Of a stretch of 64,000 nt of DNA, positions 56,898 through 59,468 are shown in pieces (position 1 is the stretch's first letter; every line of letters begins with the position of its first letter). Source of the stretch: Gemmatimonadota bacterium (GTDB lineage Bacteria > Gemmatimonadota > Gemmatimonadetes > Palauibacterales > Palauibacteraceae); contig JBDHIO010000002.1 of NCBI GenBank assembly GCA_039587355.1, forward strand, positions 95,824 to 159,823, in the 5' to 3' direction. A program made the translations under genes and the position numbers. A model generated the notes under the pieces. It saw nothing but the letters and a program-made list of their open reading frames with translations, did no database searches and was not told where the DNA came from.

Positions 56898-57980
56898 ATG
56901 GCTCGAGCGACACCCGTCCCGGACTGGGTTCCGGCCGACCTGCCCGCATCGCCGGGCGTCTACGCCTTTCGCGACGCCTCGGGCCATCCCCTCTACGTCG
57001 GGAAGAGCGTCAATCTGAAACGGCGGGTTCGCGGCTACTTCTACGGCGGCGGACCGGACGACACGCGCCTGTCCGAGATGTTGCGCATCGCGTGCACCGT
57101 GACGGCGACCCCGACGGGGAGCGATCTGGAGGCCCGGCTCGAGGAGGCTGACCGGATCATTCGCCAGCGCCCGCCCTATAACAGGGCGCTCAAGCGAAGG
57201 GGCTCCGGATACTACCTCGAGCTTCGGTGGAACGAGCCGTTCCCTCGCCTGCGCATCGTTCGGCGACCGAGGCGCAGCGGAGCCCGATACGCGGGCCCAT
57301 TCTGGGGACGCCGCGCCCCCGAGCGAATCAAGCGATTGATCGAGAAGATCGTGCGTCTGCGAAACTGCCACGAGCCGGTTCGCCCGCACTACGAGATGAC
57401 CCCGTGCATTCAGTTCGACCTGGGACTCTGCACTGCCCCGTGCGCCCGTGCCGTCGGCCTCGACAGGTACAGGGCGCAGGCGGAGGCGGCGACCCGCCTC
57501 CTGACAGATTCCACGTACTCGTGGGCGTTGCAGGACCGGGTGACTCAGAAGCGAGACGACGCATCCGCCCGGCTCGACTTCGAGAAGGCCGCCGTTCACC
57601 AGGCCCGAATCGACTGGCTCGAGGAACTCGAGGAGTACCGGTTCGTACTCGAGGACGACGGGGGCGACCGATCCTGGCTGATCGTTCTGCCGGGGGCGGA
57701 CGACGAGACGCGAGTCCTGCAGCCCGTGGCTCTGGGGCGCGTCATGGAGAGGAGGACTGTCACCTGGGATGCGGGCTGGCCCGACGCCGTCGAGGACGCA
57801 TGTTACGCGATACGCGTGGCGGAGTTGAGGGCCCCGAGCGTTCTGTCCCCCGTCGAGTCCGTCCCCAGCCTGATGATTCGCCGCTGGCTGGAAGAGGGCT
57901 CGCCCGATGGAATCCCGGTCGACCTCTCGCGCCGCGACGCGGATCAGGCGATCCGCTTCATCGACCGCTCGCTCAACTAG
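56898..57980 (+). CDS. GIY-YIG nuclease family protein, UvrC N-terminal/Cho-like (putative excinuclease)
   Basis: GVYAFRDASGHPLYVGKSVNLKRRVRGYF is the GIY-YIG motif. Later LDFEKAAVHQARIDWL resembles the UvrC UVR (UvrB-interacting) helix. No RNase H/HhH C-terminal half. Confidence 0.6.
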   Translation: MARATPVPDWVPADLPASPGVYAFRDASGHPLYVGKSVNLKRRVRGYFYGGGPDDTRLSEMLRIACTVTATPTGSDLEARLEEADRIIRQRPPYNRALKRRGSGYYLELRWNEPFPRLRIVRRPRRSGARYAGPFWGRRAPERIKRLIEKIVRLRNCHEPVRPHYEMTPCIQFDLGLCTAPCARAVGLDRYRAQAEAATRLLTDSTYSWALQDRVTQKRDDASARLDFEKAAVHQARIDWLEELEEYRFVLEDDGGDRSWLIVLPGADDETRVLQPVALGRVMERRTVTWDAGWPDAVEDACYAIRVAELRAPSVLSPVESVPSLMIRRWLEEGSPDGIPVDLSRRDADQAIRFIDRSLN

Positions 57981-59468
57981 CGGCGGCTCGCGCCTCCGGC
58001 GAGGACGTCACGCGGTCGAGCTCCCGTTTCGCCACGCGAGTGATCAGCGCAACGACGAGAAACGTGGCCAGAAGACCCGCGATCAGCAGCGCGGTCTCAC
58101 CCCACGAGGCGGCTCCGCCGGCCGCCTGCGCGACCCCGACGCCTGCGACGCCTATGTACACGTAGAGCAGGGTTCCCGGGAGCATCCCCACCAGCGAAGC
58201 CATCACGTATCCGCCGAAGGAGACGCCCGTCAGGCCGTAGAAGTAGTTCTGCACGTTGAACGGGAACACGGGCGAAAGCCGGGTGAGCGCGACGACCCGC
58301 CACCCCTGCTCCTCGACGGCCCGGTCGATCGCGCTCAGTGTGTCACGACCGGCGAGCCAGCGTTCCACCCGCGCTCGCAGAAAGTAGCGCGCGACGAGAA
58401 ACGCCAGCGCCGCCCCGATGTTCGCTCCGATGAAGACGACCACGAAGCCGATCCCGAAGCCGAACGAGAAGCCGGCTCCCAGTGTCAGCGCACCTCCCGG
58501 GACGAGCAGCACGACGAAGACCACATAGCCGAGGGCGTAGACCACTGGGGCGAGCGCACCGAAGCCGGTGACCCAGCTCTGAAACGAGGAGAGCAGCCCC
58601 GACAGCCCTCCGGTCCGACCGTTCGAGCCGGCCTCCCCGCTCGACGACGCCTGCGGGGGCGGAGTCGCGGCGTTCAGGGCCCAGTCGTAGTCCTCGAAGC
58701 GGATGGAGAGGGCCGGATCGGCTTCGATCGCCTCTCGAACCTCGTCGGTGGCGTATCGCGCCACGAAGGTCGGGATGGACTCCGCTCGCGGCTCCCACCC
58801 CTCCTCGACGAAGTCCCCGCCGTACCAGTCGAAGTAGCGCGACAGGACGAGCGTGCCGTCGTCGAGCCGGACGTTGTCCTCGTTCGTCAGGAACGCGCGG
58901 CTACGCTCCTCGAGCTGGGCCTCGAGCTCGGCGCCCGTGTACGCCCAGCCCGGCAGCGGAGCACATGAATACGAAGCGCAGTTCACCGCGAAGTGGATTC
59001 GCGGGTCGCGGAAGAAGGGCCTCAAGAGGTTGTGCTCGAGGTTGTCGAGCGTGACGGACTGCCCGCCCACGTCCCACTCCCGCTCGGTCCAGACACCGTC
59101 GATATCGCGAATCGAGGACACCGTCGGATGGTCCAGGATCGATTGAACAGTCAACGCGTTGTACGCGTTGATGAGGAGGGCCATCAGGTCCGCCGGAGCC
59201 AGCGACCCGAGGTCGACCGCCGCGAGCGATGCGAGGTATGCCGACAGGTCGTCGGCCCGACCGGCCATGTAGGCGTAATCGACGAACCCTTCATTCGTCC
59301 CCGAAGCGAGAAGCGAGTCCCACGGGGAATGGTCGAACGATGCCGTACCGCCGGCCAAGGAACGCTCCACCGCCGCAGCCAGCTCGCCCGTCGCCCGCTC
59401 GCTGGCCGGCGCGCCGCACGCGCCCCACACCACGAGCGCGGCCAACAGTCCGCTCGTCCTCACGCTCA
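57973..59468 (-). CDS. Fusion protein: N-terminal DUF547 domain + C-terminal TVP38/TMEM64 (DedA/SNARE-associated) membrane domain
   Basis: ATG at 59468 with a signal/anchor. LLINAYNALTVQSILDHP (DUF547-like). C-terminal RLSPVFPFNVQNYFYGLTGVSFGGYVMASLVGMLPGTLLYVYIG matches the TVP38/DedA core closely. Confidence 0.6.

Follow-up and report, generated by a model that had tools for sequence, protein, structure and literature searches.

Can a gene that joins two orphan protein domains in one reading frame tell us what either of them does? The question is raised by a 64,000-nucleotide stretch of DNA (the window) from contig JBDHIO010000002.1 of a Gemmatimonadota bacterium (assembly GCA_039587355.1, positions 95,824 to 159,823 of the forward strand), in which a gene on the minus strand had been described, in an earlier note made from the sequence alone, as a fusion of DUF547 with a TVP38/DedA membrane domain. 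DUF547 is an old and large orphan family that reaches into plants. DedA proteins are nearly universal, their substrates are mostly obscure, and domain fusions are used in the field to guess at them (PMC10193950, PMC10127716). Among their subfamilies that of TVP38, COG0398, stands nearest to human TMEM41B and VMP1; it is without an assigned function in bacteria. Here we report that the fusion is genuine and that the two domains are paired in both orders and in several phyla, and we propose that they form a two-part module of the cell envelope.

A genuine fusion of two orphan domains

The gene is a single uninterrupted open reading frame (ORF) encoding 503 amino acids (aa) counted from a GTG start. 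Exactly two families were found in its product with Pfam, DUF547 (PF04784; E=2e-22, 80 bits against a cutoff of 27) followed by VTT_dom (PF09335; E=1.6e-27, 96.9 bits against a cutoff of 33.9, covering profile positions 1-121 of 123), and an NCBIfam scan of the whole protein gave no meaningful match. Both domain identities proposed in the earlier note thus stand above the gathering threshold, and the motifs that it quoted were recovered, LLINAYNALTVQSILDHP at aa 103-120 and RLSPVFPFNVQNYFYGLTG...GMLPGTLLYVYIG at aa 402-445.

A search with the whole protein returned 2078 matches at E≤1e-5, and the architecture was read for the best 120, all of which contain both domains at 50-93% identity; several lie on contigs of 2.3-4.3 Mb named Candidatus Palauibacter or Gemmatimonadota. 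Scanning the DNA of species-representative genomes with hidden Markov models (HMMs) revealed both halves in one reading frame at 25 independent loci, from Gemmatimonadota plus one Polarisedimenticolia metagenome-assembled genome (MAG) and one Acidobacteriota MAG. An assembly error, a frameshift or a faulty gene call that joined two separate genes might be suspected from the existence of separate genes in other phyla, and from one Gemmatimonadota MAG (L026, 1258-3155), the sole locus at which the two halves overlap in different frames. This locus is either the product of a frameshift or assembly error itself, or a copy of the fusion that was split, or became a pseudogene, only recently. Set against the unbroken frame in the window, the 120 fused homologs of 120, including those on closed or megabase-scale contigs from many samples, the 25 fused loci, and a linker that varies in length among homologs but keeps the frame, the artefact explanation is refuted. 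The earlier note had held that separate genes in relatives would imply a frameshift; separate neighbouring genes are indeed known, yet they belong to other phyla and follow either order, and the search of relatives for the same fusion found orthologs down to 50% identity to be uniformly fused. One further homolog of 873 aa (P0128) has a phosphofructokinase domain ahead of DUF547 and VTT, and this three-domain protein may be a merged gene call rather than real.

Pairing of DUF547 and VTT across phyla

The order DUF547-then-VTT is found in Gemmatimonadota and some Acidobacteriota. The opposite order, with VTT N-terminal and DUF547 C-terminal, was seen in 9 of 20 longer DUF547 proteins scanned with Pfam, and defines a family of at least 935 proteins, with both domains present in each of the 120 listed and with names that refer to Phycisphaerales, Planctomycetia and other Planctomycetota. 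Both orders also occur as adjacent genes: DUF547 then VTT at four loci (L037, L055, L071, L073), from Blastocatellia, Verrucomicrobiales and a MAG labelled Heliobacteriaceae (L055), and VTT then DUF547 at five (L058, L061, L064, L068, L082), from Desulfobacterota, Vicinamibacterales and a MAG labelled only Proteobacteria (L058). In all, a VTT gene is a neighbour at 17 of 57 non-fused DUF547 loci, at which neighbours were counted within about 4 kb. Two opposite fusions together with operonic adjacency therefore make a Rosetta-stone case for a direct functional partnership, and show DUF547 and VTT to be, as judged from gene arrangements, a conserved functional pair. The suggestion of the earlier note that the fusion is informative about DUF547 gains support from this evidence. 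The partnership, in both orders and in the reductase and ArsS setting described below, is undescribed in the literature searched, and is visible in public annotation.

Further lipid-modification genes were observed near the pair. In one Desulfobacteria locus DUF547 and VTT are separated by a gene for a HAD-family hydrolase (L074, 4697-5500), and genes for sterol-desaturase/OlsE-like lipid hydroxylases stand beside the module in two unrelated loci (L064, 5514-6278, minus strand; L083, 14042-14701, minus strand).

The membrane half is of the YdjX/TVP38 type

An HMM of the VTT half of the window family gave 129 bits for YdjX and 74 bits for YdjZ of Escherichia coli, and did not detect YqjA; homologs carry the JGI name "YdjX (TVP38/TMEM64 family)". 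In terms of sequence similarity, the VTT half is a member of the COG0398 (YdjX/TVP38/TMEM64) subfamily. Hydropathy and the helices of an AlphaFold2 (AF2) model are compatible with two re-entrant segments, a PG-containing one at aa 310-345 and one around RLSPVFPFN at aa 400-420. Residues L400, R402, N413, Y414, G417 and T419 are invariant in the second of these loops, and the first, LLVPGGALTLGAG, has a Gly at the position of D51 in YqjA and no equivalent of E39. Among the residues of the COG0586 undecaprenyl-phosphate (UndP) flippases (E39, D51, R130 and R136 in YqjA numbering), only R130 thus has an equivalent, R402. The absence of the E39/D51/R136 pattern was used by Todor et al. (2023) to argue against COG0398 proteins as UndP flippases, and the same authors place these proteins nearer to the eukaryotic scramblases TMEM41B and VMP1 (PMC10127716). 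A role in UndP recycling, at which the earlier note had hinted, is unsupported for a VTT half that is of the COG0398 type and without equivalents of E39, D51 and R136, and the transfer of the UndP flippase label to this subfamily should be corrected. Cysteines are missing from the VTT half altogether, and none is conserved within aa 295-503.

The gene order around the closest model-organism homologs may be mentioned here. In E. coli K-12 (NC_000913.3, 1833401-1836063), ydjX and ydjZ flank the ferredoxin-type gene ydjY and precede the AhpD-like gene ynjA, and AhpD-like/CMD genes are also found in two ArsS-linked loci (L083, L090). A redox neighbourhood may be general to COG0398 DedA genes.

A conserved cysteine pair in an exported domain

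In exhaustive phmmer searches with aa 30-285 as the query, DUF547 homology spanned about 240 aa (query residues 4-248, aa ~33-277 of the protein), twice the length of the Pfam model. Searching with DUF547 alone gave 7988 representatives of 50%-identity clusters at E≤1e-3, and most DUF547 relatives are stand-alone exported proteins of 250-290 aa. AF2 models the domain with a predicted local distance difference test score (pLDDT) of 93-99 in the full-length protein, and with a pLDDT of 94.8 and a predicted template modelling score (pTM) of 0.93 when modelled by itself.

The only cysteines of the window protein are C23 in the lipobox and the C169/C174 pair. Across 147 diverse DUF547 domains H164, C169 and C174 are 98-99% conserved, and conservation of at least 95% extends to Y70, A102, N106, Y108, N109, L146, E150, R155, R162, A170, L177, L191, W220, D224, F225, Y266, W268 and N271. 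About 17 of these highly conserved positions are polar or aromatic and, by their conservation, look like an active or binding site. The family-wide elements NxYN and HFAxxCxxxxCP are both present in the window protein (N106, Y108, N109; H164, C169, C174). The motif, as H[FY]A[LV]xCxxxxCP, is kept in Proteobacteria, Bacteroidota, Planctomycetota and haloarchaea, and the Cys pair is kept in ArsS-linked, archaeal, Planctomycetota and thioredoxin (Trx)-fused DUF547s.

The literature searched, on DUF547/PF04784, on TIGR04282/3 and DUF3641, and on arsenosugars together with DedA or TVP38, holds only mentions of domain architecture and no functional work; the DUF547 architectures include PTEN-C2-DUF547, from Entamoeba, and the GRX-DEP-DUF547 of class IV plant glutaredoxins. 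A bacterial protein in which DUF547 is fused to DsbH/DsbD_N was added when longer DUF547 proteins were scanned with Pfam. Second DUF547 copies occur within the same clusters at three loci, all on the minus strand (L037, 6808-7680; L055, 7015-7860; L088, 14410-14726), and tandem double-DUF547 proteins also exist (P0132, P0137, P0138, P0185). Such duplicates suggest that DUF547 may work as a dimer, or may have two related substrates.

Export and predicted topology

In about 80 homologs, without exception, the protein begins with a basic n-region and a hydrophobic core that lead to the sequence ...[LVA][ASTG][AG]C[GA]AP, and the lipobox C23 is at least 90% conserved. These N-termini agree with the lipoprotein pattern [LVI][ASTVI][GAS]C, the window's own box, W-G-A-C, being slightly atypical at position -3. 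Since a lipoprotein signal is present in all of these homologs, the DUF547 half is exported, as the earlier note had supposed in calling it secreted or periplasmic, and the signal sequences indicate that it is probably N-terminally lipidated. Stand-alone YdjX has an N-terminal transmembrane (TM) helix exactly where the window protein has its signal peptide and DUF547. The linker between the domains varies in length among homologs (alignment of 782 columns).

Hydropathy, an Arg-rich loop at aa 366-400 and a basic C-terminal tail fit a path of the VTT half from periplasm to cytoplasm. The chain would enter from the periplasm, pass the re-entrant segment 310-345, cross at TM 347-365 to a cytoplasmic loop, and continue through the re-entrant segment 400-420 and two further TM helices to a cytoplasmic C-terminus, giving a predicted three full membrane crossings and two re-entrant loops. 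The cytoplasmic position of the C-terminus follows from the fusion of a reductase to it in L075 and on the Acinetobacter plasmid described below. Six reverse fusions whose hydropathy was read (P0147, P0157, P0159, P0172, P0182, P0230) have an extra N-terminal TM helix, and two hydrophobic spans past the VTT core where the window protein has one. Because of the extra helix DUF547 would lie outside in these proteins too, and from the predicted topogenic elements it is placed outside in both fusion orders.

Reductase and arsenosugar gene partners

Between or beside the DUF547/VTT pair, split loci have a gene for a pyridine-nucleotide disulfide oxidoreductase of class I, some 490-510 aa long, with Pyr_redox_2 and Pyr_redox_dim domains and a GDCLNxGCVPSK motif. 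It was found at 18 of the 57 non-fused DUF547 loci, in several gene orders; it adjoins both Planctomycetota fusions examined, and is fused to the VTT C-terminus in L075. The fusion of VTT with such a reductase is the commonest COG0398 fusion according to Todor et al., in whose study DUF547 is not noted (PMC10127716). The best NCBIfam model for the reductase is the uncharacterised NF004991. Its identification as mercuric reductase (MerA) was rejected, as it scores below the MerA cutoff and is without the C-terminal Cys pair, and labels of the "mercuric reductase" type on these proteins are probably wrong. Five of the reductases (L037, 5053-6576; L073, 5407-6930; L090, 10777-12312; L092, 10732-12249; L083, 6614-8764) have in common a C-terminal tail ...HPYPT...AWRR, which is basic and amphipathic and could serve to attach the enzyme to the membrane or to VTT. 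Other thiol-redox genes accompany DUF547 on plasmids: CcdA and thioredoxin in an Acinetobacter and a Burkholderia thailandensis locus, and redoxins that flank DUF547 on a Halorubrum plasmid, with a dihydrolipoyl-dehydrogenase-like gene nearby.

A second set of partners comes from clusters around ArsS, according to work cited in PMC12159101 a radical-SAM enzyme that adenosylates arsenic in oxo-arsenosugar biosynthesis. Such clusters were recognised by ArsS (Radical_SAM+DUF3641, TIGR04167) and/or TIGR04282 and TIGR04283 transferases. One or other of these genes is a neighbour at 8 of the 57 loci, and 23 of the 57 have at least one of VTT, reductase and ArsS/TIGR04282/TIGR04283. A tight operon on a plasmid of Acinetobacter portensis comprises arsS, a TVP38/FAD-oxidoreductase fusion, DUF547, TIGR04283, TIGR04282, a methyltransferase and a phosphate transporter, with CcdA, thioredoxin, a peroxiredoxin-like gene and mtnP nearby. 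On plasmids of Hymenobacter, B. thailandensis and Roseomonas, DUF547 adjoins arsS, TIGR04282/3 and further radical-SAM genes. The Phycisphaerales locus L090 encodes PNP, a methyltransferase, PHO4, Radical_SAM+DUF3641 (ArsS), an AhpD-like CMD protein and a low-molecular-weight phosphatase (LMWPc), followed by the reverse fusion VTT-DUF547, the reductase, a GT-C-like protein and GT2-DUF2064-GT2; a second Planctomycetota locus (L092) has VTT-DUF547, reductase and GT2. DUF547 is also fused directly to the GT2-like TIGR04283 "arsenosugar biosynthesis glycosyltransferase" (P0208, 206.5 bits; P0213, 228.9 bits; curated cutoff 182). In L090 the GT-C-like membrane protein is of the MptA_B family (12300-13739) and the low-molecular-weight phosphatase is ArsC-like (8447-8935), and the two together hint that the same pathway may include a periplasmic glycosyl transfer, with a lipid-linked donor.

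The window protein is tied to these partners through its VTT half, because the closest non-fused relatives of that half are split genes linked to reductase and TIGR04283 (L073, 231 bits; L037, 216 bits; compared with 129 bits for YdjX), a ranking for which bit scores were used alone, the neighbour-joining tree of VTT halves being rough, with no support values and with five sequences present as short fragments.

Proposed function and alternative explanations

We favour, with a probability of roughly 0.55, the reading that the protein is a two-part envelope module, in which VTT moves a lipid or lipid-like molecule and the outer DUF547 processes its head group in a thiol-dependent manner. In this scheme the lipoprotein signal would export the ~245-aa DUF547 domain to the periplasmic face of the inner membrane, where a flexible linker would hold it to VTT. 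The VTT domain would move a lipid or lipid-like amphiphile between the leaflets, for which TMEM41B/VMP1 and PetA offer precedents, and DUF547, on the outer face, would bind the amphiphile's head group or process it chemically, in a step that depends on thiols. Fusion would keep the two partners close together and guarantee their 1:1 stoichiometry. An organoarsenical sugar or lipid would probably be the substrate in ArsS-linked relatives, though not necessarily in the Gemmatimonadota clade. Fusions in both orders, operons, the reductase and the ArsS clusters would turn two orphans into one testable system with a defined sidedness and with evident residues for point mutation.

It is tempting to go further, if only tentatively, and to see in DUF547 the missing extracytoplasmic dithiol component of a widespread, membrane-spanning pathway for organoarsenical or thiophilic-metalloid sugars or lipids. 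The enzymes of the ArsS cluster and the reductase would build or reduce the compound on the cytoplasmic face, the COG0398 TVP38-type DedA protein would flip it, and DUF547, outside, would capture or convert it; the last two steps would be hard-wired in the fusions of Gemmatimonadota and Planctomycetota. We hold this wider pathway to be unlikely as it stands; if true, it would provide the first function for DUF547, a domain shared with plant class IV glutaredoxins, and the first physiological substrate class for the least understood bacterial DedA subfamily.

Several observations weigh against the envelope module and its thiol step. No homologs of the reductase, ArsS, TIGR04282/3, CcdA or thioredoxin were found in the window, 58 kb of which lie on one side of the gene, nor in the surrounding 4-6 kb at any of the 25 fused loci; the stand-alone DUF547 proteins nearest in sequence, from Acidobacteriota (40-59% identity), are likewise without them nearby. 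For the window clade, the connection with arsenic and redox chemistry is thus indirect and rests on more distant homologs. The Cys pair may have a structural role, as a disulfide, and not a catalytic one. A PDB sequence search with the family profile gave no match, the DUF547 fold has no solved relative hinting at its chemistry, and neither DUF547 nor any bacterial COG0398 protein has a known biochemical activity. In the full AF2 model (pTM 0.59) the linker has a pLDDT below 50 and the orientation of the two domains is undefined, and the topology is based on hydropathy, the positive-inside rule and fusion logic rather than on a dedicated predictor or experiment.

Some of these points would suit an arrangement in which VTT is a generic phospholipid scramblase and DUF547 an unrelated, co-localised domain with a structural, sensing or protein-binding role, a structural disulfide, no thiol chemistry and, in this clade, no organoarsenical link. 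COG0398 proteins do resemble TMEM41B and VMP1, exported Cys pairs are often structural disulfides, and neither at the fused Gemmatimonadota loci nor near their closest stand-alone DUF547 relatives was a reductase or ArsS gene found. Independent fusions in both orders and operonic adjacency nevertheless argue for a mechanistic partnership, and the ~17 conserved polar and aromatic residues resemble an active or binding site. Systems dedicated to the delivery of reductant, moreover, turn up repeatedly with DUF547, and in eukaryotes its companion is GRX, in cytosolic proteins that are unlikely to contain a structural disulfide. On balance we find the scramblase arrangement improbable. Much less can be said for UndP recycling, in which VTT would return C55-P like UptA/YqjA and DUF547 would be a periplasmic accessory, for example in C55-PP handling. 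The protein does belong to the DedA superfamily, and DedA-PAP2 fusions exist in COG0586 (PMC10127716); but the VTT half is of the COG0398 type, with YdjX at 129 bits and YqjA undetected, it is without the E39, D51 and R136 equivalents of the putative UndP flippases, and genes for the cell wall or for a C55-PP phosphatase accompany it in none of ~90 loci, where the recurrent partners are the reductase and ArsS-cluster genes. A small residual probability is kept for this role because PetA shows that clade-based predictions for DedA proteins can fail (PMC10193950); we otherwise consider it very improbable. An electron relay of the DsbD/CcdA kind, from cytoplasmic reductase through VTT to a periplasmic DUF547 dithiol, fits the sidedness, with the reductase at the cytoplasmic VTT C-terminus and the C-x4-C of DUF547 outside. 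It is highly unlikely all the same, because the VTT half has no cysteines, the only ones in the protein being at positions 23, 169 and 174; the Acinetobacter and B. thailandensis plasmid DUF547 loci encode CcdA and thioredoxin, the usual periplasmic reductant route, and the window clade is without a reductase nearby. A module in which VTT moves a lipid-like molecule and DUF547 processes its head group hence remains the reading that we prefer.

Gene features and neighbourhood

The positions of the features described are collected in Table 1. Translation may begin at the GTG (59484) or at an alternative in-frame ATG at 59469, which would give a protein of 498 aa. Either start is possible, because GGAGG precedes the GTG, 11 nt upstream, yet the 93% identical homolog P0001 is called from the position equivalent to the ATG and is 498 aa long. 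The end coordinate 59468 given in the earlier note is one base out of frame (16 stops on translation); the ATG is at 59469.

Table 1. Positions in the window of the fusion gene, its parts and the elements directly upstream.
Feature	Position	Strand	Residues (aa)	Basis or remark
Whole gene: lipoprotein signal, DUF547, linker, YdjX/TVP38-type VTT membrane domain	57973..59484	-	1-503	ORF list, Pfam, 120/120 homologs alike
Putative signal peptide and lipobox (...VVWGA/C23)	59416..59484	-	1-23	basic n-region, hydrophobic core, Cys+1 then G/A-A-P
Full DUF547 structural domain, mixed alpha/beta, predicted periplasmic	58657..59397	-	30-276	homology span, AF2
Pfam DUF547 (PF04784) core match	58888..59199	-	96-199	Pfam
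HFAVNCASYSCAPL motif, C169-x4-C174 pair	58954..58995	-	164-177	conservation over 147 domains
Pro/Ser/Gly-rich flexible linker and amphipathic pre-helix	58570..58656	-	277-305	pLDDT <50 for aa 281-292
VTT/DedA membrane domain, YdjX/TVP38 (COG0398) type; basic C-terminal tail predicted cytoplasmic	58015..58569	-	306-490	hydropathy, AF2 helices, subfamily test
Pfam VTT_dom (PF09335) match	58150..58503	-	328-445	Pfam
Second re-entrant-loop signature LTRLSPVFPFNVQNYFYGLTG; R402, no second Arg	58225..58287	-	400-420	conservation, alignment with YdjX, YdjZ, YqjA
GGAGG, Shine-Dalgarno-like site	59496..59500	-		11 nt upstream of GTG; overlaps TAG stop of M48 peptidase gene
Upstream M48 metallopeptidase gene, HEIGH motif, own lipobox (...GVSAC)	59500..61035	-		Pfam Peptidase_M48, 145 bits

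The M48 gene is separated from the fusion gene by a gap of 15 nt, and the two are probably co-transcribed. Eight related Gemmatimonadota loci have the same gene directly upstream of their fusion, and L026 has a truncated match there; in Palauibacter loci an S58 peptidase occupies the upstream position instead. On the other side, a convergent GIY-YIG/UvrC-like gene (56898-57980, plus strand) overlaps the 3′ end of the fusion gene by 8 nt and is followed by HD-domain and HEAT-repeat genes, in a block that is syntenic in many related loci. A search of the Gemmatimonadota neighbourhoods for a conserved functional partner thus yielded synteny alone, with M48 upstream and GIY-YIG, HD and HEAT downstream, and the M48 neighbour is a matter of synteny only, not a demonstrated functional partner. 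Farther along the same contig lie adjacent genes for LptF/LptG-family permeases (49822-52588, plus strand; 254 and 241 bits), followed by a gene for a 657-aa protein (52601-54571, minus strand) whose C-terminal part matches GDP-mannose dehydratase/epimerase models; these genes form an outer-membrane/lipopolysaccharide context.

Comparison with known systems

The closest VTT homologs in a model organism, YdjX and YdjZ of E. coli, share the loop RLxPxxPF...NY..GLT with the window protein, but are stand-alone proteins of ~235 aa in which an N-terminal TM helix replaces the signal peptide and DUF547. The eukaryotic phospholipid scramblases TMEM41B, VMP1 and Tvp38 also have the Pfam VTT domain, and COG0398 is the bacterial subfamily closest to them; unlike the window protein, they have no DUF547 partner and reside in endoplasmic reticulum or Golgi membranes. 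Proteins of the UptA/YqjA type (COG0586) have the superfamily fold with two re-entrant loops, which is also predicted for the window protein, whereas the window protein is without their acidic pair and second arginine, and its family HMM does not match YqjA.

The bifunctional TVP38/TMEM64-FAD-dependent oxidoreductase (PMC10127716) belongs to the same VTT subfamily, likewise has an accessory domain bolted onto a TVP38 core, and is encoded directly upstream of a DUF547 gene on the Acinetobacter plasmid and in L075. Its partner domain is cytoplasmic and C-terminal, in contrast to the exported, N-terminal DUF547 of the window protein, which has no reductase nearby. DedA proteins are also fused to enzymes, namely to MprF lysyl-phosphatidylglycerol synthase, CDP-alcohol phosphatidyltransferase, phospholipase D and PAP2 (PMC10193950, PMC10127716). 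By the logic that is proposed here for the window protein, a DedA transporter is there covalently coupled to a domain that makes or modifies its cargo, but those partners have known lipid chemistry and DUF547 has none. A fusion with DUF547 is mentioned neither by Roney and Rudner (2023; PMC10193950) nor by Todor et al. (2023; PMC10127716). Other architectures of DUF547 itself, with GRX-DEP, PTEN-C2, TIGR04283 or DsbH/DsbD_N, have the domain in common and, in the bacterial examples, the Cys-pair motif. The eukaryotic proteins among them are cytosolic, whereas the DUF547 of the window protein is exported, and the partners that recur are thiol-redox modules and membrane- or lipid-directed modules. 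Fusions of DedA proteins with accessory domains are thus already known, and it is the specific partnership of DUF547 with TVP38 that is new.

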